DNA of 37,619 bases from a virus: IMG/VR virus record IMGVR_UViG_3300036715_000355, positions 1 to 37,619 of that record. One strand, 5' to 3'. The notes under the pieces were generated by a model, which had not been told where the DNA came from, did not search any database, and worked only from the letters and a program-made list of their open reading frames with translations. The translations under genes were made by a program, and so were the position numbers. Shown here in pieces: positions 1-37,619 of this stretch. Positions within the stretch are counted from its first letter, which is position 1. Every line of letters starts with the position of its first letter.

Positions 1-127
1 ATTTCGATTTCGTTCTTCACATCGTCAAGCAGGACGAGGACTGGTTTGGTTCGGGCATCCAGGGCCACCAGAGCGGCCTTGAGATATGATTTCGGGTCGT
101 AGACCGTTCCGTCCTCCCCGCCATACC
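1..127. repeat. Terminal direct repeat, left copy (identical to 37493-37619)
   Basis: 127/127 nt identity between the two window ends, checked base by base. A minus-strand ORF reads through the junction. Confidence 0.95.
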
Positions 128-311
128 AGATGGTGCCGGTGGAGATCGTCCTGAAGCCAATCAGGATGCCGGTTCGGTTTTTGGGGAATGGCTTGACCTC
201 CCACACCTTCCACCAGTCAGAGCCGCCCGACTCTCTGATGCGGTGTTCCGACTTCCGGCGAAGCTGGTGAGGGATGATCACCACATCCCCGAATTTCAGA
301 TCATTGGCCAT
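1..311 (-). CDS. Hypothetical early protein; 5' portion of a junction-spanning gene (311->1 continues 37492->37480, 107 aa in total)
   Basis: ATG at 311-309 with GGAGG upstream. The frame is open to the window edge and, through the overlap, ends ...NEIEMPQA-TGA at 37482-37480. Confidence 0.7.
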   Translation of the reverse strand, partial: MANDLKFGDVVIIPHQLRRKSEHRIRESGGSDWWKVWEVKPFPKNRTGILIGFRTISTGTIWYGGEDGTVYDPKSYLKAALVALDARTKPVLVLLDDVKNEIE

Positions 312-963
312 GTGGCCTCCAAGGTTCATGCAGATGGACAAGATCAGGCGGAAAGCGCCTGGACCTCGATGGTTTGGGCGATGGAAAGCAGAAGGTCGCG
401 GAAGGCGTGGGGCGACCTCTGCCGTTGGCGGCTCGACATATTGGCGATGATTCCGCAGCGCCTGGCCGATTCGTAACCGCGCTCCGCCAGGCGCTTGGCC
501 GGTAGGCGTTGTTCACACGGCCCCAGATCAGTTCGGGGGGCTTGGGACCGACCACCAGGAGCCATGTCTTCTTCCTGGCAGGGTGGCCGTAGTGCCCTTG
601 CTCCACTTCACAGGTCCATTCCTGATAGCCGATCTGGAGCCATCCAGTCTTGGGTGGCGTGGGGATCCCGAAGGCAGGCCACGCCTTGGAGTGGGCGGGG
701 TGTTCCAGGATTCCGCCGAAGCGGCGAAGGGAAGCCAGCGCGGCCTTGAAGCATCCGGCATCGTCCCCAGCCTTCTTGGTCTTCAGGGTCATGGAGCCTT
801 CCGCGAACCGGCCCCAGCGTTCACAGGGCGGGTGGGCGACCACGGGGTGAGGGCCTTGGTAGGTCCGTGCGTCCCGGTTGATGTCCCACGGGTCCACGCC
901 GGGAAGGCCGAAGTAGCACCCGTTGGTTTCGACATAGAGAGCGGCGATCAATTCAGGCTCCAA
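301..963 (-). CDS. Cytosine-C5 DNA methyltransferase-like protein (as-assembled ORF; frame probably disrupted near 520-540, authentic stop probably TGA 346-344)
   Basis: AHPPCERW (compare motif IV PPC), ILEHP (compare ENV) and GHPARKKTW (compare QxRxR). No clear FxGxG motif. TTG start at 963 or 951. The last ~65 aa are Arg/Pro/Ser-rich, while the -1 frame gives a plausible C-terminus. Confidence 0.45.
   Translation of the reverse strand: MEPELIAALYVETNGCYFGLPGVDPWDINRDARTYQGPHPVVAHPPCERWGRFAEGSMTLKTKKAGDDAGCFKAALASLRRFGGILEHPAHSKAWPAFGIPTPPKTGWLQIGYQEWTCEVEQGHYGHPARKKTWLLVVGPKPPELIWGRVNNAYRPSAWRSAVTNRPGAAESSPICRAANGRGRPTPSATFCFPSPKPSRSRRFPPDLVHLHEPWRPHGQ
312..346 (-). repeat. Intergenic TGTCCA element, copy a
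   Basis: Minus strand 347-309: CTGATCTTGTCCATCTGCATGAACCTTGGAGGCCACATG. Confidence 0.7.
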
Positions 964-991
964 AGGACCGTGCAGATGGATAGGTGCGCTA
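952..991 (-). repeat. Intergenic TGTCCA element, copy b (TATCCA variant)
   Basis: Minus strand 991-949: TAGCGCACCTATCCATCTGCACGGTCCTTTGGAGCCTGAATTG. Also contains the tandem 9-mer AGCGCACCT x2. Confidence 0.6.
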
Positions 992-1204
992 GGTGCGCTC
1001 GAAATAGGGACAGTGATCTTTTAGCTCTTCGCGTCGGTTGATATGCCCTCCGCTGGGGACAGACGGTCCTCCGATCCAATAAAAGCAGGTCGGCAATGCG
1101 GGCATTTTTATCGAATACCGGCATCGACCATCTCCGCTCGGGTGCATCCTCCCAGTTGCAGTTTTCTGCCAGTCGGCGTGTTTACAGTCGGTGCAGTTCT
1201 TCAC
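989..1204 (-). CDS. Hypothetical small Cys-rich protein (71 aa)
   Basis: GTG at 1204 after a GGGGG SD-like run. CxxC...C...C pattern (VKNCTDCKH...). The longer track ORF would overlap the upstream gene. Confidence 0.5.
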   Translation of the reverse strand: MKNCTDCKHADWQKTATGRMHPSGDGRCRYSIKMPALPTCFYWIGGPSVPSGGHINRREELKDHCPYFERT

Positions 1205-1230
1205 GATGCCCCCGCATCTGGACAAGATCA
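1205..1230 (-). repeat. Intergenic TGTCCA element, short copy c
   Basis: Minus strand: TGATCTTGTCCAGATGCGGGGGCATC followed by GTG. The upstream stop TGA lies inside CTGATCTTGTCCA. Confidence 0.55.
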
Positions 1231-1476
1231 GTTGAAGAGTTCGGGGTTGGTGAGGTCGTGGTTCACCATGGCGTCGAAGATCCGCATAGCCATGGATCGG
1301 AGTTGAATGTGCCCCCAACACTGGATGCAGATTCCGGGGTGGTCTGGTTCCTGCTCACAGAGGTCCCATCCGGTGCCATCCATTTCCCATGGACCCGTGA
1401 CGAACCAGCGCCCATCCATGGCGGCGATGCTGGTGTCATTGGCGACAGCCTGAGCCTGCTTGCGGGTGAATGCCAT
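1228..1476 (-). CDS. Hypothetical protein (82 aa)
   Basis: ATG at 1476 with GAGGTAAG SD inside the end of the upstream gene. Tight spacing within the operon. Confidence 0.6.
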   Translation of the reverse strand: MAFTRKQAQAVANDTSIAAMDGRWFVTGPWEMDGTGWDLCEQEPDHPGICIQCWGHIQLRSMAMRIFDAMVNHDLTNPELFN

Positions 1477-1478
1477 GG

Positions 1479-1778
1479 CTACTTACCTCGGGTGGAATGG
1501 ATAAGGGCGATGCCAAGAGTGCTCACTTCGGATTCTTCAGGGCGCGGGTGAAGGTTGGGATAGGCGCGGTGCCTGAACTCAGTCAGTTGCTCGGGGGTCA
1601 TCACCTCGCAGGCGATCTCTAGTTCCCGGCTCTGGTCATCGAAGGCTTGTCCTAGTTTCTCGATGCTCTCGTTCTCGCGGCGGGCGGCGTCGATGACGGG
1701 TTGCCAGTAGGAGGCGCGGACGCCTCGGCAAAGCTCAGCTTCAACTTCGTTAATGAGTCTGAAAACCTGAGTGCTCAT
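1479..1778 (-). CDS. Hypothetical protein (99 aa)
   Basis: ATG at 1778 preceded by GGAG (TTGTCCAGGAGTCCTATG). The track ORF extends further upstream across the preceding stop and motif. Confidence 0.6.
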   Translation of the reverse strand: MSTQVFRLINEVEAELCRGVRASYWQPVIDAARRENESIEKLGQAFDDQSRELEIACEVMTPEQLTEFRHRAYPNLHPRPEESEVSTLGIALIHSTRGK

Positions 1779-1798
1779 AGGACTCCTGGACAAGATCA
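1779..1798 (-). repeat. Intergenic TGTCCA element, minimal copy d
   Basis: Minus strand: TGATCTTGTCCAGGAGTCCT then ATG. The upstream stop TGA (1798-1796) is embedded in the element. Confidence 0.55.
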
Positions 1799-2056
1799 GT
1801 GGATGGGGCGGTGCTTGCCGCAGGTGCCTCGGTAGCCTTCGGGCGTGGGTGTCCCGCAGGACCACCAATCCCAGCACCCCGGCTCATCGCAGCAGGTTTT
1901 GACGCTACTGACATCCTTGCAACCGGGGCACCCGGTCAGTTCATCGTCAGGGTCGAATGGGTTGGGGGCATGGAGCAGTTCGGTGTCTTCGCCCTTCCAC
2001 CCGCAGTTGGAGTTCTCGCATTTCACTTTCACGGTCGGGCTCCCGGACAGGCTCAT
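1796..2056 (-). CDS. Hypothetical Cys-rich protein (86 aa; alternative GTG start at 2032)
   Basis: About 10 Cys (CENSNCGW...CPGCKD...CCDEPGC). ATGA overlap with the upstream gene. TGAGCCTGTCCGGGAG at the 5' end resembles the intergenic element, so the start may be GTG 2032. Confidence 0.6.
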   Translation of the reverse strand: MSLSGSPTVKVKCENSNCGWKGEDTELLHAPNPFDPDDELTGCPGCKDVSSVKTCCDEPGCWDWWSCGTPTPEGYRGTCGKHRPIH

Positions 2057-2262
2057 CCCTGCTGGATGGGTAGATGGATGGTATCGATGAAGGCTTCGCC
2101 GAAGAGTTCATCCTCCTGGGCGGCATCGAGTTCGTTTTCAGCCTCGGTTACATCAAATAGCCGCACCCAGAGCGATCCACCGGCATAGGGGACTTCGGTG
2201 TATCCAACGCCATTCTCTGGCTTTGTCTCGGCGGCGTAGATGGCAAGAATTTCATTCGACAT
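2053..2262 (-). CDS. Hypothetical acidic protein (69 aa)
   Basis: ATG at 2262 with AAGGAA SD, preceded by element copy e. Confidence 0.6.
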   Translation of the reverse strand: MSNEILAIYAAETKPENGVGYTEVPYAGGSLWVRLFDVTEAENELDAAQEDELFGEAFIDTIHLPIQQG

Positions 2263-2299
2263 GGCAGTTCCTTCCAAGGTTCATGCGAGTGGACAGTTA
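2263..2299 (-). repeat. Intergenic TGTCCA element, copy e
   Basis: Minus strand 2299-2260: TAACTGTCCACTCGCATGAACCTTGGAAGGAACTGCCATG. Confidence 0.7.
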
Positions 2300-2488
2300 C
2301 GGTTTCGGTGCGTATTCGATGAAGAACGGGCAGAAGAACGGCGGGGCTGTGGGGCTCAGGTCAGCAAAGCTGAGGGGTCTAAGTCCCATGCCATCGTCTG
2401 CCTCGCAATCCATGAACCGGGCGCAGGTATCGCGCTTGCCACAGGTCGTTCCGATGCACCGGGAAACATCGCGGGGAAGCTGGCTCAT
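2297..2488 (-). CDS. Hypothetical Cys-rich protein (63 aa)
   Basis: ATG at 2488 in ATGA overlap with the upstream stop. RCIGTTCGKRDTCARF... pattern. Confidence 0.55.
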   Translation of the reverse strand: MSQLPRDVSRCIGTTCGKRDTCARFMDCEADDGMGLRPLSFADLSPTAPPFFCPFFIEYAPKP

Positions 2489-2715
2489 GCCTCCCTCGCC
2501 GCCAGTTCCTTGCAATACTCGATCAGTTCGTCCTGCATCCGTTTCCCGTTGTCGCCAAGGGCAAACCTGATGCGAGATAGCAAGTCGAAGGCGCTGGCGT
2601 TGTCGCGCTGCGCCTGCTCCACCTCCTGCCGGATGGAATCCAGGGCGGGACGCCACACGGTTTCGGGAGCATCACAAGTGAGCAGGCATTGTTCAAGGAT
2701 CGGAAGGTCAGTCAT
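2485..2715 (-). CDS. Hypothetical protein (76 aa)
   Basis: ATG at 2715. ORF taken from the track. Coupled to the downstream gene by an ATGA overlap. Confidence 0.6.
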   Translation of the reverse strand: MTDLPILEQCLLTCDAPETVWRPALDSIRQEVEQAQRDNASAFDLLSRIRFALGDNGKRMQDELIEYCKELAAREA

Positions 2716-2811
2716 GTGGGGTGCCTTTGGACAGGATTTCAGTTGTTAAGGATTTCTGAATAACTGAACCGTAAAGGGATTCTTGACGGTTCGGATTCTG
2801 GACATTCGTTA
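2716..2811 (-). promoter_or_regulatory. Largest intergenic gap of the leftward operon: two TGTCCA cores plus a 7-bp-stem hairpin (2766-2792)
   Basis: tggaca at 2728-2733 and 2799-2804 on the plus strand. Inverted repeat gaaccgt-N13-acggttc. No T-run follows it. Confidence 0.35.
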
Positions 2812-3027
2812 GCGAGTGGTCCCGACAGCCGGGACACCCGCAGGGATTTCGATTTCAGTTGTAGGGCACCAGTGGGTGACAAAGGGCTCGGTGTAATTCC
2901 CAGTGCCGTTGAGGGTGTTCCCATAGGCGGTGATGATCTCGGTTCCGATGATCGGGTTAGCCTGGATAGCCATCACACGCTGACCTGGGGCTGGCTTTGA
3001 TTTCTTCAAGTCTCGCCATGGGAGCAT
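2809..3027 (-). CDS. Hypothetical protein (72 aa)
   Basis: ATG at 3027 with AAAGGAA SD, preceded by element copy h. Confidence 0.6.
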   Translation of the reverse strand: MLPWRDLKKSKPAPGQRVMAIQANPIIGTEIITAYGNTLNGTGNYTEPFVTHWCPTTEIEIPAGVPAVGTTR

Positions 3028-3066
3028 CGGAATTCCTTTCGAGGGTCGTGCATCTGGGCAGCCTCA
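3028..3066 (-). repeat. Intergenic TGTCCA element, copy h (TGCCCA variant)
   Basis: Minus strand 3066-3025: TGAGGCTGCCCAGATGCACGACCCTCGAAAGGAATTCCGATG. Confidence 0.65.
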
Positions 3067-3246
3067 CTCGGCTGCGGCTTCGGGTTCGTCATAGCCCCAA
3101 GAGATTTCCTGGAGCATGGCATCGCGCATGTAGTTCTCGCGTTCATCGGGTGCCATTTCGTCCCAGTCCTCTTGGTCGATTTCGACGGTGAATTTCTTCT
3201 TGCTGTGGATGTTGGCTCCACTGTCTACATAGGCTTGGATCTTCAC
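3064..3246 (-). CDS. Hypothetical acidic protein (60 aa)
   Basis: GTG at 3246 with GAGGTGA SD. ORF taken from the track. Confidence 0.5.
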   Translation of the reverse strand: MKIQAYVDSGANIHSKKKFTVEIDQEDWDEMAPDERENYMRDAMLQEISWGYDEPEAAAE

Positions 3247-3277
3247 GGTTCACCTCATGGGATATTGGACAGGCTCA
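3247..3277 (-). repeat. Intergenic TGTCCA element, copy f
   Basis: Minus strand: CCCAGGCGTGAGCCTGTCCAATATCCCATGAGGTGAACC then GTG. CCCAGGCGTGAGCCTG is shared with copy m. Confidence 0.55.
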
Positions 3278-3538
3278 CGCCTGGGTGTCTTTCAGTTCGC
3301 AATCACACATGATCGAAAAATCAGGGTTGTCCTCACGGGTGACAGGGCGCTCGTTGGTCATGGTTGCCACCTGAGACACCAAACCCCAGCAGATAGAGGT
3401 GGCGTATTCACTCCACCCTTCGTCCCCGGCGGTTTCCTGCTCGGACTCCAGCGCCTTTGCTGCGTGGTCCCTTGCTGCATCGGCGTTGTCGTGGAATTGG
3501 AAATCACCCATTCCGTCATAGCTAAAAAACAATCCCAT
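3275..3538 (-). CDS. Hypothetical protein (87 aa)
   Basis: ATG at 3538 with AAGGAA SD, preceded by element copy g. Confidence 0.6.
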   Translation of the reverse strand: MGLFFSYDGMGDFQFHDNADAARDHAAKALESEQETAGDEGWSEYATSICWGLVSQVATMTNERPVTREDNPDFSIMCDCELKDTQA

Positions 3539-3575
3539 GGCGTGTTCCTTCCAAGGTTCATGCGAGTGGACATCA
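3539..3575 (-). repeat. Intergenic TGTCCA element, copy g
   Basis: Minus strand 3575-3536: TGATGTCCACTCGCATGAACCTTGGAAGGAACACGCCATG. Nearly identical to copy e. Confidence 0.7.
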
Positions 3576-3830
3576 GCGTTTCGGGACGGTGGAGTGCCCA
3601 CCGCATTGCCCCATGGCAGACTCGAAAGCGATCACAGCATCCTCTGGGGTGCTGCCGAACCCGGCGACTCCAGAGGCAAGGTCATCGCCCCAAAGCAGGC
3701 ACCAGAGGTTTCCATCGCGCTTTGGCTTCAGCCCCAGCACGACAGCCCAGTGATCCCGCTTCTCGGCTGCGGCATGATCCAGGCGGGCGGTGGCATACAT
3801 TTCTTGCTGCACATGAAATGGGACTTCCAT
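3573..3830 (-). CDS. Hypothetical protein (85 aa)
   Basis: ATG at 3830 with AAAGGA SD (GAAAGGACCACCATG). MEVPFHVQQ... Confidence 0.55.
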   Translation of the reverse strand: MEVPFHVQQEMYATARLDHAAAEKRDHWAVVLGLKPKRDGNLWCLLWGDDLASGVAGFGSTPEDAVIAFESAMGQCGGHSTVPKR

Positions 3831-3901
3831 GGTGGTCCTTTCTGGGCAATAGTGCGTTGTTGTTGGTTCTGATGGTTCCGGTATGCCAATAGGGTCAGAC
3901 A

Positions 3902-4090
3902 CTAAACAACGATGTTGGTCGTGTTCAATTTGCGCCCGGCAAGCTCACGGATGGCCTTACGATGTTCTTTCGACGGGGTGTGTTCATTCTTGAGCCAGCG
4001 GAATATGGTTGATCTATGGACTTCCAACTTGGAGGCCAGTTTGTTCACACCGTATCTTTTGACCCAAGCGGCGAATTTGGCATCGGCCAT
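3902..4090 (-). CDS. Cro/YdaS-like helix-turn-helix regulator, first gene of the leftward operon
   Basis: 62 aa. HTH segment VNKLASKLEVHRSTIFRWLKN. GGGAGG SD. Faces the divergent control region. Confidence 0.7.
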   Translation of the reverse strand: MADAKFAAWVKRYGVNKLASKLEVHRSTIFRWLKNEHTPSKEHRKAIRELAGRKLNTTNIVV

Positions 4091-4236
4091 TTGTTACCTC
4101 CCGAGACAAACGTAACGCAACATCGCCAGTCGCGCAAGGGGCAACTTTGAACAAAAAAAAAGGTTGCGCGAGCCGCGACATGATGTATCCTTAATTATCA
4201 ACCAACCGGGCCATCCCGGAATGCCGAGGAGCTACA
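4091..4236. promoter_or_regulatory. Divergent early control region (candidate back-to-back promoters and operator half-sites)
   Basis: Only sizeable gap between divergent operons. GCGCAA (4132-4137) faces TTGCGC (4164-4169). Related ACGCAAC at 4115-4121. A9 run at 4153-4161. Possible TTGCGC-16-TATCCT rightward and TTGCGC-17-TACGTT leftward. Confidence 0.4.
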
Positions 4237-4584
4237 ATGTTGAACCCCACCCCCCAACACCGCATGGACCTGATCGTGGGCTATGCGGCCATCCTCATGG
4301 ACATCTGCCGGACCAACCGGGACAAGCCCAATCTGCTGGCCTACGAGATGCTGACGCTGGTATCTGCGGACATTACCCAGCAGACTGACCGGCTTCTCCA
4401 GGACCACGACGATGCCAGGTTCCAGGCCATGTGGGGCCACCGTGGGACCGTGGGTTGTGCCTGGGATAAGATCGTGGACTCTGCTTTCGATGAGGGCTTT
4501 GACGACCTGAACCCCGCCGAAGACGCAGCGTTTGATGCGATCGAAGCTGCCCATCCCACTACATTCAACCCGAAGGGGCTGTGA
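4237..4584 (+). CDS. Hypothetical protein (115 aa), first rightward gene
   Basis: ATG with GAGGAG SD. ORF taken from the track. Confidence 0.65.
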   Translation: MLNPTPQHRMDLIVGYAAILMDICRTNRDKPNLLAYEMLTLVSADITQQTDRLLQDHDDARFQAMWGHRGTVGCAWDKIVDSAFDEGFDDLNPAEDAAFDAIEAAHPTTFNPKGL

Positions 4585-6901: not shown

Positions 6902-7588
6902 ATGAAACTCACAACCCTTAAACCTTGCGAAGATGCGGCCATTTGGCTTGCAACTCAACCAGACCCAGAAACGGCGTGGAATACTTGTCACCGTTCAGAC
7001 TGGATGATCTGGCTTCTTAAAACCATCATATACGACGACCCCAAAGCATACCGACTGTTTGCCTGCTGGTGTGTCCGTAATACTCCATTGGCCGATGGCC
7101 GCAAGGTTTGGGATCTACTGACCGATCCGCGCAGTAAAAACGCTGTAGAAGTAGCGGAACGATTCGCAGTTGGTGAAGCCACAGAACAAGAGCGGGCTGC
7201 TGCGGCTGCTGCGGCGGGGGCTGCTGCGGATGCTGCGGCGGGGGCTGCGGATGCTGCGGGGGATGCTGCGGGGGCTGCTGCGGATGCTGCGTGGGCTGCT
7301 GCGGGGGCTGATGCGGATGCTGCGTGGGCTGCTGCGGCGGGGGATGCGGATGCTGCGTGGGCTGCTGCGTGGGCTGCTGCGGGGGGGGCTGCGGCTGCTG
7401 CGGCGGCGGCTACGGCGGCTGCTGCGGCGGGGGATGCGGATGCTGCGGGGGCTGCTGCGGATGCTGCTGCGGCTGCTGCGGCTGCTGCGGTGTGGAATGC
7501 TGCTGCGGGGGATGCTCAAACCAATAAGCTACGTGATATGATCCCATTCTCTGCGTTCTCACATTTACTTGGTAACGGCTATGAGTAA
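6902..7588 (+). CDS. Protein with an alpha-helical N-terminal domain and a long Ala/Asp/Trp-rich repeat tract
   Basis: N-terminus has TAWNTCHRSDWMIWLL...FACWCVR...AERFAVGEATEQE, followed by ~105 aa of A-rich repeats (AADAAWAAA...). GGAG SD. Confidence 0.6.
   Translation: MKLTTLKPCEDAAIWLATQPDPETAWNTCHRSDWMIWLLKTIIYDDPKAYRLFACWCVRNTPLADGRKVWDLLTDPRSKNAVEVAERFAVGEATEQERAAAAAAAGAAADAAAGAADAAGDAAGAAADAAWAAAGADADAAWAAAAGDADAAWAAAWAAAGGAAAAAAAATAAAAAGDADAAGAAADAAAAAAAAAVWNAAAGDAQTNKLRDMIPFSAFSHLLGNGYE
7196..7514. repeat. Degenerate short tandem repeat (gctgctgcgg / gatgctgcg units), in frame within the 6902-7588 CDS
   Basis: Seen directly. It leaves all six frames open, which explains several track ORFs here. 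Confidence 0.9.
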
Positions 7589-7895: not shown

Positions 7896-10118
7896 ATGGA
7901 CTATTCGCAGTTCCTAGACGGGAAGGCGATCCGCGCCATTCCTACAGGCATCCCAGCGCCAGGGCCAGTGCCTCCCATGTTATTCCCATTCCAGGCCGAT
8001 ATCGCCCGATGGGCGATCAAGCGTGGCCGTGCCGCCATCTTCGCAGACTGTGGGATGGGCAAGACACCGATGCAGCTTGCATGGGCTAATCAGATCCCAG
8101 GCAAGGTGCTAATTCTGGCTCCGCTTGCCGTAGCCCAGCAGACAGTGCGTGAAGGTAAGAAGTTCGGGACTGATCTGACCTATTCACGGTCTGCGTGTGA
8201 CGCACGGATCACCATCACTAATTACGAGATGCTGGACCACTTCAATGCTCATGACTACACTGGCATCGTCCTGGATGAGTCCAGCATCCTGAAGTCCTAC
8301 GATGGCAAGTTCCGTCAGCAGATCATTGAGTCGTTCAAAGACACGCCATTCAAACTGGCCTGCACCGCTACACCTGCCCCAAACGACCACATGGAGCTTG
8401 GGAACCATGCTGAGTTCCTGGGTGTTCTGACCCGCACCGAGATGCTTTCGACCTTCTTTGTGCATGACGGTGGCGACACGGCCAAGTGGCGCATCAAGGG
8501 CCATGCTGAGGATGACTTCTGGAAGTGGCTGGCTTCATGGGCTGTGATGATCCGCAAGCCTTCGGACCTTGGCTATGAGGATGGCAACTTCATCATTCCA
8601 GAACTGATCATGCACCCTCACATCGTGCAGGCTGAACACACCCCAGAGGGGCTTTTGTTCGCTCTGGAAGCCACCACACTCCAGGAACGCCAGCAGGCCC
8701 GCAAGATCACCACGCCGGAGCGTGTGGCCCGTGTTGCGGAGATTGTGGCCACGAAGCCCGATGAACCTTGGCTGATCTTCTGCAACCTGAACACTGAATC
8801 TGAATCTGCGGCATCGGCCATTCCCGGCGCTGTGGAGATTACCGGCTCCGATTCCATGGAAGTTAAGGAATCCAGGATGCTCGGGTTCCAGGATGGATCG
8901 CATCGGGTGGTGGTTTCCAAAGCGTCGATCTGTGGATTTGGGATGAATTTCCAACACTGTCCCAATGTGGTTTTTCTCGGCCTCTCCGACTCATACGAGC
9001 AGTTCTACCAGGCGATCCGCAGGTGCTGGCGTTTTGGGCAGACCAAGCCCGTCCACTGCCATGTCGTGACCTCTGACCTTGAGGGCGCTGTGGTTTCCAA
9101 CATCGAACGCAAAGAGGATGATGCCCAGCGCATGGCCGAAGGGATGGTTTCTCACATGCACCAATTCAATGAGCAGGACATTCGCGGCACAGTCCAAACC
9201 CACGACACTTATCGGACCAATCATGCCTCTGGTAAGGGTTGGGATATGCACCTTGGGGATTGCGTTGATGTGGTCAGCCAGATCCCATCTGACTCCATCG
9301 GCTATTCGATATTCTCCCCTCCGTTCGCAAGCCTCTACACCTACTCCGCATCGGACCGGGACATGGGGAACTGCCGGGATGCTGATGCTTTCTATAAGCA
9401 CTTCCGGTTCCTGACGAAAGAACTGCACCGGGTCATGATGCCGGGTCGGAATCTGAGCTTCCATGTGATGAACCTGCCCTTTTCCAAAGAGCGTGATGGG
9501 TTCATTGGCATCCGGGACTTCCGGGGCGATCTGATCCGCATGTTCCAGGATGAGGGATTCATCTTCCATTCTGAGGTTTGCATCTGGAAGGATCCAGTCA
9601 CGGCGATGCAGCGGACCAAGGCTATTGGCCTTCTGCACAAGCAGATCAAAAAGGACTCGACCATCTCTCGCCAGGGCATCCCTGACTACCTTGTGACGAT
9701 GCGGAAGCGCGGGGCCAACCCTGAGCCTGTGACCCACACTGACGAGACGTTCCCAGTCCAGATGTGGCAGAAGTATGCCAGCCCTGTTTGGATGGATATT
9801 AACCCTTCTGACACTCTCCAACGAGAATCTGCTAGGGAAGAGAAGGACGAGCGCCATATCTGCCCTTTACAGCTTCAAGTGATCCAGCGGGGCCTCGATC
9901 TGTGGTCTAACCCAGGCGATCTGGTTCTCTCCCCATTCGGCGGGATCGCTTCTGAGGGTTTCATGGCAGTGAAGATGGGCCGTAGGTTCGTTGGTGCTGA
10001 GTTGAAGGAATCTTACTGGAAGCAGGGGTGCCGGAACCTAAAGGCGGCTGAGACTGCCAACGAGGGCGGGTTATTCGACCACCACGACTCTTGTGTAACC
10101 CTTGACACAGACCACTAA
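7896..10118 (+). CDS. SNF2/DEAD-like helicase fused to an N6-adenine/N4-cytosine DNA methyltransferase (beta-class order)
   Basis: Helicase motifs: CGMGKT, VLDESS, CTATPAPN, QAIRRCWRFGQ. Methyltransferase motifs: SIFSPPF (motif IV) then DLVLSPFGGIASEG (motif I). Confidence 0.85.
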   Translation: MDYSQFLDGKAIRAIPTGIPAPGPVPPMLFPFQADIARWAIKRGRAAIFADCGMGKTPMQLAWANQIPGKVLILAPLAVAQQTVREGKKFGTDLTYSRSACDARITITNYEMLDHFNAHDYTGIVLDESSILKSYDGKFRQQIIESFKDTPFKLACTATPAPNDHMELGNHAEFLGVLTRTEMLSTFFVHDGGDTAKWRIKGHAEDDFWKWLASWAVMIRKPSDLGYEDGNFIIPELIMHPHIVQAEHTPEGLLFALEATTLQERQQARKITTPERVARVAEIVATKPDEPWLIFCNLNTESESAASAIPGAVEITGSDSMEVKESRMLGFQDGSHRVVVSKASICGFGMNFQHCPNVVFLGLSDSYEQFYQAIRRCWRFGQTKPVHCHVVTSDLEGAVVSNIERKEDDAQRMAEGMVSHMHQFNEQDIRGTVQTHDTYRTNHASGKGWDMHLGDCVDVVSQIPSDSIGYSIFSPPFASLYTYSASDRDMGNCRDADAFYKHFRFLTKELHRVMMPGRNLSFHVMNLPFSKERDGFIGIRDFRGDLIRMFQDEGFIFHSEVCIWKDPVTAMQRTKAIGLLHKQIKKDSTISRQGIPDYLVTMRKRGANPEPVTHTDETFPVQMWQKYASPVWMDINPSDTLQRESAREEKDERHICPLQLQVIQRGLDLWSNPGDLVLSPFGGIASEGFMAVKMGRRFVGAELKESYWKQGCRNLKAAETANEGGLFDHHDSCVTLDTDH

Positions 10119-12024: not shown

Positions 12025-12336
12025 ATGAACGACATCAAGGCAACCGAACTAACCATCAACGGCATTACATACGTGCCTAAGGGAACCGAAACGTCGGCCA
12101 CCCTCGGCCCCTGCCGAATTATCGTTGCGGATCGTGGCTGGGTATTCGTCGGTAACTGCGAAGATCATGCCGATGGGACCATAACTATCTCGAATGCTCG
12201 TAATATCCGACTTTGGGGGACCACCAAGGGGCTTGGTGAACTGTCGGAAGGCCCCTTGTCTGGCACCAAATACGACAAATACGGAACCGTCCGTTGCCTA
12301 CCCATCGTCCAGATCAGCGTTAATTCGGGGTGGTAA
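12025..12336 (+). CDS. Conserved-looking hypothetical protein (103 aa)
   Basis: GGAGA SD. ORF taken from the track. RIIVADRGWVFVG...IRLWGTTKGLGEL. Confidence 0.6.
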   Translation: MNDIKATELTINGITYVPKGTETSATLGPCRIIVADRGWVFVGNCEDHADGTITISNARNIRLWGTTKGLGELSEGPLSGTKYDKYGTVRCLPIVQISVNSGW

Positions 12337-12337
12337 A

Positions 12338-12571
12338 ATGAAAGCCCTACTGATGGGGAATAACGGCTACGGCGACGGCTACGGCGACGGCTACGGCTAC
12401 GTAGACGGCGACGGCGACGGCGACGGCTACGGCTACGGCTACGGCGACGGCTACGGCGACGGCTACGGCTACGGCGACGGCTACGGCTACGTAGACGGCT
12501 ACGGCGACGGCGACGGCTACGGCTACGGCTACGGCGACGGCTACGGCGACGGCTACGGCGGCGGCTTATGA
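12338..12571 (+). CDS. Gly/Tyr/Asp repeat protein (77 aa, (GYGD)n)
   Basis: ATG at 12338 directly after the TAA of the upstream gene. MKALLMGNNGYGDGYGDGYGYVDGDGDGDGYGYGYGDGYG... ATGA coupling to the next gene. Confidence 0.55.
   Translation: MKALLMGNNGYGDGYGDGYGYVDGDGDGDGYGYGYGDGYGDGYGYGDGYGYVDGYGDGDGYGYGYGDGYGDGYGGGL
12365..12563. repeat. Tandem repeat of ggctac/ggcgac hexamers (12-mer ggctacggcgac), in frame
   Basis: Seen directly. There is a higher-order duplication, with ggctacgtagacggc occurring twice. Confidence 0.9.
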
Positions 12572-14531: not shown

Positions 14532-14570
14532 CAAGTTGTCCACAAGTTGACAGTGACGCAAGAGGGCACA
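14529..14570 (+). repeat. Plus-strand copy of the stop-TTGTCCA-SD-start element ahead of terS
   Basis: TGACAAGTTGTCCACAAGTTGACAGTGACGCAAGAGGGCACA then ATG. Contains TTGTCCACA and the direct 10-mers acaagttgtc / acaagttgac. Confidence 0.5.
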
Positions 14571-14897
14571 ATGGGTAAGGTGGAGGACCAGCCTAAGAAA
14601 AAGGCGAACAAAGGAACTTTTACCAAGGATAATCCAGGCCCCGGTAGGCCCAAGGGGATACCGAACAAACTCACAACCCAGGTCAAAGAAGCTATGGAGT
14701 TGGCCTTCGAGGGGTTGGGAAGCGTGGATGAGTTGATTGAATGGGGCAAGACCAATCGAACCGAGTTCTACAAGTTGTGGATCCGGCTCCTGCCCGCGAA
14801 GATCGAGGCAACCGGCAAAGATGGTGAAGCCCTCTTCGGCCCTGATCAGATTGTCCGGGCTGCAAACGAGATCATCGCTGCGCGGTCCCGCAAGTGA
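14571..14897 (+). CDS. terS: Terminase small subunit-like protein (DUF5681-like)
   Basis: ATG at 14571 with AGAGGG SD. NPGPGRPKGIPNK motif. Lies directly upstream of TerL and overlaps it. Confidence 0.6.
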   Translation: MGKVEDQPKKKANKGTFTKDNPGPGRPKGIPNKLTTQVKEAMELAFEGLGSVDELIEWGKTNRTEFYKLWIRLLPAKIEATGKDGEALFGPDQIVRAANEIIAARSRK

Positions 14898-34325: not shown

Positions 34326-36371
34326 GTGTCAGCACCCATCGCAGTCCCAACTACTTCCAGCATCTTCCAATACCCGCCCAACTTCCCAAACGGTCAGACC
34401 GCTGATATCTGGAATGCGTATTTCCAGAGCATCAACGATGGGTTTTCAACCGCACCAGGGATCTTGGGTGCGGTAGCCTACACGATCCTAGCGGATACGG
34501 TCAGTGCCTCTAATGGGGCTGGGTTGGTTGGTTACAATGCCGCGCTAACATACGGTGTAGGGACCATCGGGAAGGCGGTCAAGGACAACGCAGCCACCGC
34601 TTCTGCGGCCACATCGTTAGTGCGGACCGACCTAGCCGATACCACAGACGTAGCTAAGGGCGATGCGCTGGTGGGGGTGAAGCAGCTGTTCACGGGGGCT
34701 GTGGCACGGACCCAGCATGACAAAAACGCTGACATCGTTAGTCTCAAGGACTTCGGGGCAGTCGGGAATGGGATTGCCGACGATACGGCGGCCATGACTG
34801 CGGCCATTGCTGCGGGTGAGTTCCTGGTCCCAGATGGAACCTATCTGGTCAGCACGGTGACTGTTAACAATAGTGTCAGGATGTATGGGACTGGTCGGAA
34901 TAAGGCGATCATCAAACAGAAGAACGCTACAAACAACAACCTGTTCCAAGTCAACGGTGACTACGCTTTTGAGGCTTATGACATCCAGTTTGACGGCAAC
35001 GGTGCCAACCAGTCGTTGAAGTCTGGTCTCCAGGATGGTATCTCCATCCCTGTTGGGTCACTCACTCTTGAGCGGTGCTGGCTTCACGACTTCAAGGGCA
35101 ATATAGTCAGATCTGGTAACACTGAGTCGAGCTTCGGCTATGCCTCCGACATCAATACCTACGCACATGACTTCCGCATTGTAGGTAATAAGTTCGATCA
35201 GGGGGCCATTGGCCTTGGCTATGGTGATTGCCTACGATTGTTCAAGGTCCAGCGTGGCGAGATCAGCGGTAACTACTTGGTGGGTGGGCTTTCTCCCATG
35301 CGTGGTTGCTACTACTGCTCAGGTTTGAATATTGCAAACAATCGGTCATACAACACAAATGACGTTGGTATCACACTCGCGTTATCTTTCGATTGCACGG
35401 TGGTTGGTAATGTCTGCAACGGCCATAGTCATCACGGGATAGAGATCGATTCCTGCGTCAGGGTTACCTGTGCTGGGAACACTACCAGTGGGAACACTCT
35501 GCACGGAATAGCCATGACTGAGTTTGGCCCTCCAGTGGGTGCTGGTTACTCGGGTTATCTAGACGGTGTTCTGGTGTCCAACCCCACAACGCCTGCAAAT
35601 GTGGATTGTGTGTTCACAGGCAACAACGTCAGCAAGAACGGAACTGGGGGCATGAGCCTTCTGTCTTGTGACGGTGTGCTTGTATCCGGTAATAGGTTCA
35701 GCGGGAACAACACCAGCAACACAGGTGGAGAAGGGTGCGGGATCTACCTCTCTGGAGGAGCCGCAAACAAAGACAACGCAATGATCCAGGCCAATGTTTT
35801 CAACAACACTGGCTACCAAACCAACTCGGTCAACCGTTCCAACCAGCAGATCAGCTACCAGACCAGGATGCAGGGCAACTCCCACATCGGAGGCAACCTT
35901 CAGAATGCCAGCATTCCCCTTGTCGGCGGGTTCAACATGATGACCGACAGGTTCCTGCTGAACTCGGCTTCCATCTCTGGGACATCAGCTCTTGTGGCAG
36001 ACGCACAGAGCAAGACCGGGTGGGCGCGACAGATTGCTGACGCGAGTGGGGCTAGTTCAACGGTGGTGAACTACATCGTCAACCCAGTGTCACGATATGG
36101 TGCCAAACTACTCTACTTCCGGGTTAGAACACCGGACACCATGACCAGCATCACGGTGGATGTGAATCTGTATCTTGCCGGGGTGTATGTCGCCACCGCT
36201 TCGACCATTCCCATGACACTTACTACCGCATGGAGTGAGCAGGTGATTTACTTACCAGCCTCTCTCTCCAGTAATAACTACGATAACATCCACATCCAGT
36301 TCACAACCAGTTCGGCCCTAACGGGAAACGTCAATGTGGAAGAGATCTCCTGCTTCTTGCCGTGTGAGTAG
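34326..36371 (+). CDS. Tailspike with right-handed beta-helix (pectate-lyase-3-like) depolymerase domain
   Basis: GTG start with GGAG SD. VSLKDFGAVGNGIADDTAAMTAAIAAG signature. Repeated G-N-x motifs typical of a parallel beta-helix. Confidence 0.75.
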   Translation: MSAPIAVPTTSSIFQYPPNFPNGQTADIWNAYFQSINDGFSTAPGILGAVAYTILADTVSASNGAGLVGYNAALTYGVGTIGKAVKDNAATASAATSLVRTDLADTTDVAKGDALVGVKQLFTGAVARTQHDKNADIVSLKDFGAVGNGIADDTAAMTAAIAAGEFLVPDGTYLVSTVTVNNSVRMYGTGRNKAIIKQKNATNNNLFQVNGDYAFEAYDIQFDGNGANQSLKSGLQDGISIPVGSLTLERCWLHDFKGNIVRSGNTESSFGYASDINTYAHDFRIVGNKFDQGAIGLGYGDCLRLFKVQRGEISGNYLVGGLSPMRGCYYCSGLNIANNRSYNTNDVGITLALSFDCTVVGNVCNGHSHHGIEIDSCVRVTCAGNTTSGNTLHGIAMTEFGPPVGAGYSGYLDGVLVSNPTTPANVDCVFTGNNVSKNGTGGMSLLSCDGVLVSGNRFSGNNTSNTGGEGCGIYLSGGAANKDNAMIQANVFNNTGYQTNSVNRSNQQISYQTRMQGNSHIGGNLQNASIPLVGGFNMMTDRFLLNSASISGTSALVADAQSKTGWARQIADASGASSTVVNYIVNPVSRYGAKLLYFRVRTPDTMTSITVDVNLYLAGVYVATASTIPMTLTTAWSEQVIYLPASLSSNNYDNIHIQFTTSSALTGNVNVEEISCFLPCE

Positions 36372-36403: not shown

Positions 36404-36446
36404 GGCGCGGGATGGGCGGGAAGGTTCCCGCGAGTGGACAAGATCA
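36404..36446 (-). repeat. Orphan TGTCCA element at the 3' end of the leftward operon (no downstream gene)
   Basis: Minus strand 36446-36404: TGATCTTGTCCACTCGCGGGAACCTTCCCGCCCATCCCGCGCC. Confidence 0.6.
36416..36431. terminator. GC-rich hairpin between convergent operons (candidate bidirectional terminator, no T-run)
   Basis: gcgggaa-gg-ttcccgc perfect 7-bp arms, located between the tailspike stop (36371) and the last leftward gene (36444). Confidence 0.3.
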
Positions 36447-36695
36447 ATCTGTGTATATCTCGGTGATGCTGAATTTCCAGATCCCAGGCTCTATCTCTTT
36501 GAACAAGGTGAAATATGGTCGGAAGCATTCTCCGAACTCTTTCGCCTGTTTATCGAGGATCGGTCTGTTTCCACCTCGGCTTTTTTGCAGAGCGTCCCTA
36601 GCTTCTTGTTCTGTTGCTGCCTTGACCGTTCCGGCATAGATCGAATCGCCGTAGGGTCGCAACTGTCCTACTTGTGTGAAGGTGATATTTCCCAT
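36444..36695 (-). CDS. Hypothetical protein (83 aa), last gene of the leftward operon
   Basis: ATG at 36695 with AAGGAG SD, preceded by element copy k. Confidence 0.6.
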   Translation of the reverse strand: MGNITFTQVGQLRPYGDSIYAGTVKAATEQEARDALQKSRGGNRPILDKQAKEFGECFRPYFTLFKEIEPGIWKFSITEIYTD

Positions 36696-36739
36696 GGGGT
36701 TCTCCTTTCGAGGGTCGTGCAGATGGACAAGAGGGCTCA
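36696..36739 (-). repeat. Intergenic TGTCCA element, copy k
   Basis: Minus strand 36739-36693: TGAGCCCTCTTGTCCATCTGCACGACCCTCGAAAGGAGAACCCCATG. Confidence 0.7.
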
Positions 36740-36937
36740 GAAGCCCAGGAACTCGGGGATCGCGTCGAATTGGCGCGGGGTCATCCAGACGGATTCGACC
36801 TGATAGGCGCCCTTTTCGTCGGCGTCCTCGATCATGTCGCAGGCATCAAGGGGAGTGCAGAAGCAGGAACCGGAGCCCTTCACAGAGAGCTTGATGTATT
36901 CGCGCTTGATGAATCGGGCTTTCAGCCATTCGAGCAT
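36737..36937 (-). CDS. Hypothetical protein (66 aa)
   Basis: ATG at 36937 with GAGGTG SD, preceded by element copy l. The track ORF is longer because it reads through the element. Confidence 0.55.
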   Translation of the reverse strand: MLEWLKARFIKREYIKLSVKGSGSCFCTPLDACDMIEDADEKGAYQVESVWMTPRQFDAIPEFLGF

Positions 36938-36974
36938 TGGGCACCTCGGAAGGTTCGGGGAGTGGACAAGATCA
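36938..36974 (-). repeat. Intergenic TGTCCA element, copy l
   Basis: Minus strand 36974-36935: TGATCTTGTCCACTCCCCGAACCTTCCGAGGTGCCCAATG. Confidence 0.7.
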
Positions 36975-37175
36975 GTTGAGATAGATTCGGGCGATTCGGG
37001 CTTCCTCTGAGTCGCGCAGGTTAGCGACCAGTTCCAGCCCTTCCTTGTAGCGCAGGCACTTGGCGGCAAGGCGTTGGTGTTCGGCATCTAGGATGCGGAG
37101 TTGGTCGGCGCACTCACACACCGGGTCCACGGGGCTGACTACATCCCTCCCGCAGATGTGGCAGATGTTATTCAT
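36972..37175 (-). CDS. Hypothetical CxxC...CxC protein (67 aa)
   Basis: ATG at 37175 in ATGA overlap with the upstream stop. MNNICHICGRD...VCEC. Confidence 0.55.
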   Translation of the reverse strand: MNNICHICGRDVVSPVDPVCECADQLRILDAEHQRLAAKCLRYKEGLELVANLRDSEEARIARIYLN

Positions 37176-37444
37176 ACAGATTCGACTTTGATGCCGACGA
37201 TTCGGGAGAGGGCTTGCAGGAGGTCGCCGCCGTAGCAGTTCCCCGACCCGTAGCCGCAATCAATCGCCCCGTGGGAATCGGCGCTGGCAATCTCGTTGCC
37301 CTCGTCCTGGTCATCGTCCAGGTCGGCGGGGTCGGTCTTGTAGAGGGTCCAGTCATCGTTATCCACGATGGCGTGGCATCCAGGGTTGGCTTTGATGACC
37401 TCAGCCAGTTCAGCGATGGGGTCACGCTCGGGTTTCTTTGCCAT
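37172..37444 (-). CDS. Hypothetical acidic protein (90 aa)
   Basis: ATG at 37444 with AAGGAG SD, preceded by element copy m. Confidence 0.6.
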   Translation of the reverse strand: MAKKPERDPIAELAEVIKANPGCHAIVDNDDWTLYKTDPADLDDDQDEGNEIASADSHGAIDCGYGSGNCYGGDLLQALSRIVGIKVESV

Positions 37445-37482
37445 TGGAGGCTCCTTGAGGGTCGTGCAGATGGGCAGGCTCA
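37445..37482 (-). repeat. Intergenic TGTCCA element, copy m (TGCCCA variant)
   Basis: Minus strand 37482-37442: TGAGCCTGCCCATCTGCACGACCCTCAAGGAGCCTCCAATG. Confidence 0.65.
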
Positions 37483-37619
37483 CGCCTGGGGCATTTCGAT
37501 TTCGTTCTTCACATCGTCAAGCAGGACGAGGACTGGTTTGGTTCGGGCATCCAGGGCCACCAGAGCGGCCTTGAGATATGATTTCGGGTCGTAGACCGTT
37601 CCGTCCTCCCCGCCATACC
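37480..37619 (-). CDS. 3' portion of the junction-spanning gene (same gene as 1-311; 37493-37619 duplicates 1-127)
   Basis: The frame continues from the overlap into ATG-CCC-CAG-GCG-TGA, ending at 37480. Confidence 0.7.
   Translation of the reverse strand, partial: YGGEDGTVYDPKSYLKAALVALDARTKPVLVLLDDVKNEIEMPQA
37493..37619. repeat. Terminal direct repeat, right copy (identical to 1-127)
   Basis: 127/127 nt identity with the left end. Confidence 0.95.

Follow-up and report, generated by a model that had tools for sequence, protein, structure and literature searches.

A stop-adjacent TGTCCA element at the gene junctions of a leftward phage operon: a candidate linker between exchangeable gene cassettes

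Introduction

Two views of phage mosaicism have been put forward, exchange at conserved linkers and random illegitimate recombination filtered by selection, and the second prevails largely since linkers are undetectable at most module boundaries (PMC3029335). Here we examine a short element that recurs at the gene junctions of one operon in the phage genome IMGVR_UViG_3300036715_000355, an IMG/VR record analysed over its whole length of 37,619 nucleotides (nt) and referred to below as the window. Read on the coding (minus) strand of a leftward operon of 18 genes, g1 to g18, the element consists of a core hexamer, TGTCCA, that follows the stop codon of one gene and precedes the Shine-Dalgarno (SD) sequence and start codon of the next. 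We consider it probable that the element serves as a standard junction of exchangeable cassettes, and we weigh this reading against several others.

The linkers of Botstein and Campbell and the boundary sequences of lambdoid phages (Susskind & Botstein 1978, Botstein 1980 and Clark et al. 2001, as cited in PMC2839356 and PMC3029335) belong to a model in which homologous recombination at short conserved module boundaries preserves placement and regulation (PMC2839356, PMC3029335). The promoter-early stem-loops (PeSLs) of T4-type phages are repeated regulatory cassettes reaching from the upstream stop to the downstream SD and start; they come in sub-classes, occur next to ORFans in hyperplastic regions and delimit indels and replacements between relatives, and with ~100 bp, a sigma-70 promoter and a terminator stem-loop they make each cassette transcriptionally autonomous (PMC2839356, PMC4122927). 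In Cluster K mycobacteriophages the SAS and ESAS are asymmetric repeats that stand in one orientation before non-structural genes of different families and sometimes overlap the upstream stop, with a function that is still unverified (PMC3203893; PMC12699233). The SAS is a 13-mer that includes the SD, lies 3-7 bp from the start codon and occurs mostly in gaps of more than 50 bp, and the ESAS adds 17-bp inverted repeats (PMC3203893). The stoperators of Cluster A phages, finally, are 13-bp asymmetric repressor sites in short intergenic spaces whose orientation follows transcription; those at the early promoter double as operators, and sites are found across both arms of the genome (PMC9283540).

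The conserved unit at the junctions

Bases 1-127 of the window are identical to bases 37493-37619, an exact 127-bp direct terminal repeat, and we therefore take the genome to be circularly closed or terminally redundant, with a length of 37,492 bp, and features at the two window ends to be contiguous. The leftward operon then runs from the g1 start at 4090 through position 1 to 37492 and on to about 36444. It has 17 junctions, of which 13 carry the core, and a fourteenth, terminal copy follows the last gene; of the remainder, two are ATGA overlaps, one has a 2-nt gap (TAGCCATG) and the last, g1/g2, has a degenerate core. At all 13 core-bearing junctions the core, which reads TG(T/C)CC(A) or TATCCA, is directly 3' of the stop codon. 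It thus occupies 13 of the 14 non-overlapping junctions after g2 as well as the array end, a location at module boundaries such as the linker model predicts. No comparable junction element was found among the plus-strand genes of the window.

An earlier note on this DNA, made from the sequence alone, had described an ordered, orientation-locked junction module of this kind. All the strings that it quoted are present on the minus strand where it had placed them, and the order of their parts is borne out junction by junction (Table 1). Across the window TGTCCA is not enriched (24 copies, 23 expected), but it is strongly clustered: the 5.2-kb operon has 11 copies on the minus (sense) strand and 0 on the plus strand, and the other 32.3 kb have 8 and 5. 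Longer strings exceed expectation in the window, the 23-mer TGTCCANNNGCATGAACCTTGGA with 3 matches at up to 3 mismatches (0.02 expected) and CTGATCTTGTCCA with 6 at up to 2 mismatches (1.15 expected). The same note had placed a third spacer sub-family in a "right arm"; these copies are real, but their location (37482-37442, 36974-36935, 36739-36693 and 36446 onward) is the wrapped-around end of the same operon.

We extended the comparison to 12 arrays from different phages, using ORF-anchored criteria instead of a position weight matrix scan, which at a threshold of 14 gave ~6 false matches per Mb. Among 130 sense copies of TGTCCA in these arrays, 80 lie no more than 12 nt 3' of the stop of an open reading frame (ORF) of at least 40 codons, as against a median of 3 for 180 permutations of the same letters, the next-best of which merely overlap the motif. 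The distance from stop to core is 0-4 nt in 64 of the 80, with offsets of 0, 1, 3 and 4 nt all common, and that from core to start is 8-47 nt with a bimodal distribution. When 11 arrays were tightly delimited (25.2 kb), they contained 77 sense copies, all junction-like, and 2 antisense ones, permuted hexamers averaging 5.5. The median distance between cores is 239 nt, which corresponds to one small gene per cassette.

The general order in many phages is stop, 0-5 nt, TGTCCA, 0-30 nt, SD, start. Bases outside the hexamer have low information content, and the conserved unit is the hexamer beside a stop codon; the ~40-nt element with a conserved spacer that had first been described is too narrow a definition, spacers being sub-families that go with particular cassettes. 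The element does extend beyond an SD, as the note had held, and the SD is not part of the core. Each downstream gene has its own 5' untranslated region (5'UTR) with a strong SD, which comes right after the core in short forms (for example TGTCCAGGAG...ATG and TGTCCATCTGGAGGAACCATG) and after an extra spacer such as TCTGCACGACCCTCGAAAGGAG in long forms. Recurrent sub-families extend upstream into the ends of ORFs that are unrelated, taking in their stop and last codons, as in CCAGGCG-TGA-GCC-, AAACCG-TAA-C-, CAAC-TGA-TCT-, TAA-CGAA- and TAG-CGCACC-.

Homology joints and reassortment of the flanking modules

Loci for comparison, numbered with the prefix L, were fetched by means of g13 (the sole widespread gene of the operon), DNA patterns, exact-protein look-ups and chance pattern matches. 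Joints lie at the element, and the modules that flank it reassort. L182 and the window have 99.8% identity over the stretch that begins at the g13/g14 junction (position 347) and takes in g14-g18 and the tailspike gene; where the window has g13, L182 has an unrelated 69-amino-acid (aa) ORF. The change-over falls inside the junction element, and in its 5' part L182 has an allele (TGTCCACTCGCATGAACCTTGGA) that also occurs at two other junctions of the window. L163 and L177 have an upstream ORF together with TGAATGTCCA in common and diverge immediately 3' of it, and the neighbours of g13 differ on both sides in five phages. Of 26 junction pairs homologous on one side or both, judged against a null of reversed sequences that replaced two others contaminated by true homologs, 22 are homologous on one side only; a single near-identical relative accounts for the four that match on both sides. 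The g13 and g6 orthologs show that a downstream gene brings its 5'UTR and SD along, and the stop with its 0-4 nt goes with the upstream gene.

The clearest case is the identical 21-mer TGTCCATCTGGAGGAACCATG, with 103 occurrences on 81 metagenome contigs plus the earlier IMG/VR, Logan-derived and metagenome-assembled genome (MAG) loci. Ninety instances with adequate flanks represent 67 upstream families and 55 downstream families in 74 combinations. Downstream identity reaches 80% or more in 33 pairs of instances, for many of which the aligned stretch shown is 100% identical, and in these 33 it collapses 0-4 nt upstream of the core. Upstream identity is 80% or more in 4 pairs, where the collapse comes right behind the ATG. 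Among L204, L212, L254 and L177, two upstream modules are combined with two downstream modules in each of the four possible ways, with identities of 99.7% over 343 nt for the first downstream module (D1), 100% over 350 nt for the second (D2) and 89% over 143 nt for one upstream module (U1), cross pairs being at ~27%. Such a four-gamete quartet requires recombination at the element. Homology starting and stopping at the element, with independent assortment of the modules on both sides, is what the linker model expects, and the L182 joint, the one-sided pairs, the 74 combinations and the quartet give direct comparative support to one role that the earlier note had listed, the shuffling of early gene cassettes by recombination. 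The ends of high-scoring pairs in divergent IMG/VR arrays were little informative, most of the signal coming from g13 and from tandem repeats.

The element travels with different cargo ORFs, which are otherwise unrelated between arrays: other arrays have homologs of just three of the 18 operon genes in the window, g13 and, in a single instance each, g6 and g11. The junctions themselves recur. The string CCAGGCGTGAGCCTGTCCA of the g3/g4 junction is common to the copy at 37482, L168 and L169; AAACCGTAACTGTCCA of g7/g8 is found again in L130, L126, L176 and L055; g8/g9 resembles TGTCCAGGAGCCTGACCGTG of L129, L163 and L176; and the g17/g18 sub-family is present in 12 IMG/VR contigs. At g12/g13 the SD-proximal part is conserved with the g13 orthologs of L129 and L163, the upstream neighbours all being different, and the g6 5'UTR (TGTCCAaAGGCACCCCACATG) is kept with the g6 homolog in L163, where the upstream side is unrelated.

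RNA structure, promoters and DnaA boxes

Folding of 85 junctions gave a mean z of +0.24 (+0.46 with 30-nt flanks), slightly worse than shuffled sequences, RNAalifold predicted 0 pairs for 20 long forms, and Rfam had no match in the window at E <=1. By these results the element is not a structured RNA, nor does it qualify as a ribozyme or an RNase III site, in agreement with the earlier view that it is not an RNA fold. An SD-masking hairpin, in which TCC of the core would pair with GGA of the SD, was likewise rejected, as short forms place the two next to each other and no excess structure is present. The only hairpins associated with the array lie in the g5/g6 spacer (2766-2792, minus strand; GAACCGT-N13-ACGGTTC), where the hairpin may be an internal attenuator, and 3' of the terminal copy, where GCGGGAAccTTCCCGC likely marks the end of the operon. 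In the g5/g6 region the core at 2799-2804 adjoins the stop and that at 2728-2733 adjoins the SD, with the hairpin between them.

A scan for sigma-70-like sites on both strands of positions 1-4400 found 0, with 1.5 expected, and this also disposes of antisense promoters with -35-like sites (TGGACA). Short forms have no room for a transcription start and leader, because there the start codon comes a mere 8-12 nt after the core, an interval that includes the SD. The DnaA box is a 9-mer, TTWTNCACA (high-GC form TTGTCCACA). Not one of 133 copies of the element matches TT(A/G)TCCACA; box positions 1, 8 and 9 are unconserved, with C at position 8 in 27 and A at position 9 in 29 of the 133. The reading of the core as a DnaA box is thereby refuted. 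Stop-codon read-through or recoding was discarded as well, the four common stop-to-core offsets fitting no such event.

Other lineages and their junction words

A pattern of 14 specified bases produced single chance matches in 120 loci of viral contigs and real ones only in L024 and L055, and the lineage-specific long form was absent from IMG/VR and metagenome_contigs, as was a 19-mer from GTDB genomes. The short-form search yielded L185 (JAKORR010000363.1) and L186 (JAJRCO010000310.1), with four stop-adjacent TGTCCA junctions each. They were binned into an Armatimonadota MAG and a Methanomicrobiales MAG, assignments that we do not accept as evidence of a host, since the loci are probably phage contigs that ended up there by accident. 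Three AT-rich viral contigs, L172 (minus strand, 376), L178 (minus strand, 582-600) and L179 (plus strand, 7452), each contain one GC-rich long form, TATCCATCTGCACGACCCTCGAAAGG, in every case before one shared ORF (MIPWNQ...). The contigs may be chimeric, or a cassette may have moved into a genome of a very different kind.

Another lineage that bears g13 has a different dispersed junction word on the plus strand, CC-TAA-CGTTCGAGC, with 7 copies in L152 (6164-12175), 5 in L158, 3 in L151 and 2-3 in each of L142, L144 and L146, and none antisense. In most copies of L152, L158 and L151 the TAA is the stop of the upstream ORF, and what comes after the word is an SD with ATG in some copies and a hairpin with GCGAGGGGTTAGG in others. 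The closest g13 relatives, L122 (8190-9612, plus strand) and L121, have longer junction elements of nested inverted repeats that start at TAA, namely CCTAACG...AGCTAACCGG, a hairpin, and CCGGTT.AGCG...GGTTAGG, which unlike the TGTCCA type are structured. Because other lineages put different stop-including words into the same architecture, it is this architecture that they have in common and not one sequence, which suggests that the arrangement is general and the word lineage-specific. High-copy words in L138, L161, L131, L124 and L125 proved to be tandem or coding repeats, not junction motifs.

Features of the operon and the rest of the genome

Coordinates of the operon and its junctions are collected in Table 1. 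PHROG and Pfam matches of the ORFs in the first part of the operon, which are of 60-107 aa apart from g13, are mostly to families of unknown function. The g13 gene (951-344, minus strand) belongs to phrog_12600, also of unknown function, and compared with single-ORF homologs it has a 1-nt frameshift at ~520-530, where ...ELIWG meets PCEQ.... The sequence recurs in L180 (JGI 3300035661; 100% identical) and in L184 (Logan SRR11723145; one mismatch in 1,825 nt), and because it is found in these two other assemblies we regard the frameshift as real, the gene being a pseudogene or subject to programmed frameshifting, and not as a sequencing error. It bears on the claim that a stop precedes the core at 347-309: the stop codon (346-344) is present, but it can be assigned to g13 only once the frameshift is corrected.

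Table 1. The leftward operon, its junctions and the convergent tailspike gene (positions in the window)
Feature	Position	Strand	Remarks
Operon, first part: g1 (helix-turn-helix (HTH), 62 aa, 4090-3902) to 5' part of g14 (311-1)	1..4090	-	ORF map
g1/g2 junction, degenerate core TAG-TGTCTG...	3828..3904	-	array proper begins after g2
g2/g3 junction, long form TGA-TGTCCA-CTCGCATGAACCTTGGAAGGAAC-ACGCC-ATG	3536..3575	-	
g3/g4 junction (CCAGGCG)TGA-GCC-TGTCCA-ATATCCCATGAGGTGAACC-GTG	3244..3277	-	
g4/g5 junction, long form, variant core TGCCCA	3025..3066	-	
g5/g6 long intergenic region, two cores around hairpin	2713..2811	-	
g7/g8 junction, long form (AAACCG)TAA-C-TGTCCA-CTCGCATGAACCTTGGAAGGAAC-TGCC-ATG	2260..2299	-	
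g8/g9 junction, short form, variant core: TGA-GCC-TGTCCG-GGAGCCCGACC-GTG	2030..2055	-	copy not in the earlier note
g9/g10 junction, short form TGA-TCT-TGTCCA-GGAGTCCT-ATG	1776..1798	-	
g11/g12 junction TGA-TCT-TGTCCA-GATGCGGGGGCATC-GTG	1202..1230	-	similar spacers in L126, L186
g12/g13 junction, variant core: TAG-CGCACC-TATCCA-TCTGCACGGTCCTTTGGAGCCTGAA-TTG	949..991	-	
g13/g14 junction, long form	309..347	-	mosaic joint against the 99.8%-identical relative L182
Tailspike ORF	34326..36371	+	leftward operon converges on it
Terminal copy TGA-TCT-TGTCCA-CTC, then hairpin GCGGGAAccTTCCCGC (36416-36431)	36416..36446	-	without downstream gene
Operon continuation: end of g14, g15-g18	36444..37492	-	terminal overlap, junction table
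g17/g18 junction, long form TGA-GCCCTCT-TGTCCA-TCTGCACGACCCTCGAAAGGAG-AACCCC-ATG	36693..36739	-	
g16/g17 junction TGA-TCT-TGTCCA-CTCCCCGAACCTTCCGAGGTGCCCA-ATG	36935..36974	-	
g14/g15 junction, long form, variant core TGCCCA	37442..37482	-	

On the plus strand the window encodes a terminase, a major head protein, the tailspike and a P22-like portal (~33% identity to cultured phages), together with lambdoid nin-type genes for NinB/Orf, a YbcO-like nuclease and VRR-NUC (PHROG/Pfam); we class the phage as P22-like or lambdoid. In a megablast search with 8 kb, cultured phages gave no match, and a close cultured relative was not found. PHROG and Pfam searches of the window proteins detected no RNA polymerase, sigma factor or integrase, in line with the earlier argument, based on the missing polymerase, that the copies are not T7-type promoters.

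Several further features of the window were noted. A 740-aa protein encoded at 7896-10118 (plus strand) fuses a DEAD/Helicase_C helicase to an N6/N4 DNA methyltransferase domain and is an unusual replication or anti-restriction gene product. Two in-frame tandem repeats lie on the plus strand, one of 33 copies of ACGGCT at 12363-12559 inside ORF 12194-12571, which encodes a GYGYGDG-type repeat, and one of GCTGCGGCGGCT type at 7194-7488 inside ORF 6902-7588 (phrog_18326); tandem repeats resembling these are also present in the relatives L129 and L163. The sole plus-strand TGTCCA that adjoins a gene start is in TTGTCCACAAGTTGACA (14535-14551), just 5' of ORF 14571-14897 and ahead of the terminase gene. 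This string contains an exact 9-mer of the high-GC, DnaA-box-like kind and then a perfect TTGACA hexamer, and could be a late or packaging-region control site.

Discussion

The reading that we favour, at a probability of roughly 55%, is that the element is a standard junction of exchangeable cassettes, combining translation signals with a site of short-homology exchange, a linker of the Botstein type. The leftward operon would be an accessory operon equivalent to the lambdoid PL operon. A cassette would consist of the core TGTCCA, a short unstructured 5'UTR with a strong SD, a small ORF (occasionally two overlapping ones), the stop and 0-4 nt, whereupon the next core follows directly, the last core closing the array. 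Judged by SD complementarity and spacing, the 3' half of the element is the predicted translation-initiation region of its gene within one polycistronic mRNA. The core and 15-45 nt of sub-family sequence would provide the short identity through which cassettes are gained, lost and replaced, presumably by short-homology recombination within and between co-infecting phages, carried out by phage functions (NinB/Orf and others) or by those of the host; every recombinant would retain intact ORFs and translation signals. The phage-encoded NinB/Orf, VRR-NUC and YbcO-like nuclease count in favour of such exchange. That recombination uses the element as its substrate, and that this explains its conservation, we infer from the comparisons above.

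A number of points weigh against this reading. There is only one formal four-gamete quartet, and the comparative material is largely short metagenomic contigs. Assembly chimeras at the 21-27-nt repeats are unlikely, because reads span the repeats. Stretches of 6-13 shared bases are too short for efficient homologous recombination by the known systems of phage or host, and only the 21-45-nt sub-family identities approach the length required. Recombination alone leaves unexplained why the hexamer is retained across sub-families and phages and why it is absent inside ORFs; it may instead be read directly and in a sequence-specific way, with recombination as a by-product. If selection filtered the products of random illegitimate recombination, joints would also be left at gene boundaries, but identical 21-45-nt junctions before dozens of unrelated genes would not be predicted. 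Protein co-occurrence in the partial array loci revealed no array-specific recombinase or other protein. A variant in which this last component exists, and in which the arrays are a phage-borne integron-like cassette system, seems to us unlikely. TGTCCA would there be the crossover or recognition core of a putative dedicated sequence-specific nuclease or recombinase that excises and inserts single-gene cassettes, or else a host Chi-like signal. If it were true, the arrays would be pools from which co-infecting phages exchange host-takeover and anti-defence genes, and the junction words (TGTCCA; CC-TAA-CGTTCGAGC; CCTAACG...GGTTAGG) would define compatibility groups.

A sequence-specific reader of the mRNA, be it a translational repressor, an endoribonuclease, an sRNA (small RNA) or the terminating ribosome, is a serious rival or complement to the linker reading. 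As an RNA-level operator, UGUCCA at the edge of the 5' leader would be recognised by a protein, endoribonuclease or sRNA of phage or host, resulting in operon-wide translation shut-off or processing into monocistrons, with cassette exchange a by-product of microhomology. The model can be likened to T4 RegA or RegB, and we hold it to be possible though on balance rather unlikely. Strict strandedness (77 sense, 2 antisense) speaks for it, as do array ORF interiors essentially without copies where ~5 are expected, a core of 6 nt, the typical recognition length of RNA-binding proteins, RNases and sRNA seeds, and the restriction of the motif to one co-regulated operon. The junctions being unstructured (z of +0.24 and +0.46), the core would also be accessible on the mRNA, and the hexamer is kept across sub-families and phages beyond what recombination explains. 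Yet no candidate reader was found among the window proteins or the partial array loci, genes at ATGA or TAGCCATG junctions lack the core and are presumably still expressed, and with 0 to ~30 nt between core and SD a bound factor would occlude the ribosome site at only some junctions. Nor does it account for a terminal copy without a downstream gene or for the quite different junction words of other lineages. Coupling read by the ribosome itself, in which the hexamer in the mRNA channel of a terminating ribosome promotes retention and re-initiation, would fit the 64 of 80 copies whose core lies 0-4 nt behind the stop, the intergenic gaps of 17-41 nt at most window junctions and an orientation-locked position between genes of one operon. 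We nevertheless find it distinctly unlikely, given that the core keeps no fixed phase to the stop codon, that the second g5/g6 core is ~70 nt from the stop and that nothing can be re-initiated after the terminal copy; moreover, the strong SD at every junction suffices for independent initiation, highly expressed plus-strand genes do without the element, and a cassette that simply ends with its stop codon would predict adjacency of core and stop just as well.

Readings at the level of DNA are less probable again. A stoperator-like roadblock, with a repressor such as the product of g1 or of 4237-4584 binding the junctions and blocking elongation, recalls the Cluster A hallmark of asymmetric sites in short intergenic spaces with one orientation relative to transcription (PMC9283540), and an HTH protein is indeed encoded at the head of the operon. 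We think it highly improbable: 6 bp are conserved as against 13 bp in stoperators, the divergent promoter region 4091-4236 has no copy, and the sites are limited to one operon and not genome-wide. Stoperator sequences of Cluster A co-vary with their repressor, whereas the hexamer here stays the same in phages whose fetched loci have almost no genes in common. An array of DnaA boxes, one of the roles first proposed, or of phage or host promoters we regard as scarcely tenable. The string TTGTCCAC, found in four copies of the window, resembles the high-GC DnaA box TTGTCCACA, and repeated motifs at the early-gene junctions of other phages are often promoters. Set against this are the 0 of 133 box matches with three unconserved positions, the lack of sigma-70-like sites and of space for a transcription start described above, and a window in which neither RNA polymerase nor sigma factor was found.

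The logic of linkers, boundary sequences and regulatory cassettes is already known; what is unusual here is the gene-by-gene regularity across a whole operon, the tie to the stop codon and the spread in environmental phages. Since one adaptor joins dozens of unrelated genes, with homology breaking off within a few bases of it, the linker model becomes directly testable in a natural system. The motif also offers a handle for harvesting metagenomes, in which an ORF framed by two adaptors would be a candidate host-takeover or anti-defence gene, and the adaptor is a natural design for a standardised, translation-competent junction between parts.

Comparison with known systems

As with Botstein/Campbell linkers and lambdoid boundary sequences, homology starts and stops at the element and the flanking modules assort independently; unlike them, a single hexamer is used here at nearly every junction of the operon, with single-gene resolution, next to the stop and in many uncultivated phages. 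Like a PeSL, the element reaches from the stop to the SD and start codon and stands beside ORFans in a plastic part of the genome, but it measures 20-45 nt and has neither the early promoter nor the stem-loop, and we conclude that it works inside one polycistronic transcript. It resembles SAS and ESAS in its one orientation and in preceding non-structural genes of different families, and differs from them in being a hexamer without the SD, tied to the stop, 8-47 nt from the start, in very short gaps and free of inverted repeats. With the stoperators it has in common asymmetric sites in short gaps whose orientation follows transcription; its 6 conserved bp, the empty region at 4091-4236 and its confinement to one 5.2-kb operon set it apart. 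Integron attC sites are imperfect inverted repeats of 57-141 bp recombined by the integron integrase. The present arrays differ in having no inverted repeat, conserved flanking arms or detected integrase, and they are like integron arrays in being unidirectional series of promoter-less single-gene cassettes with a short conserved core and a site at the array end.

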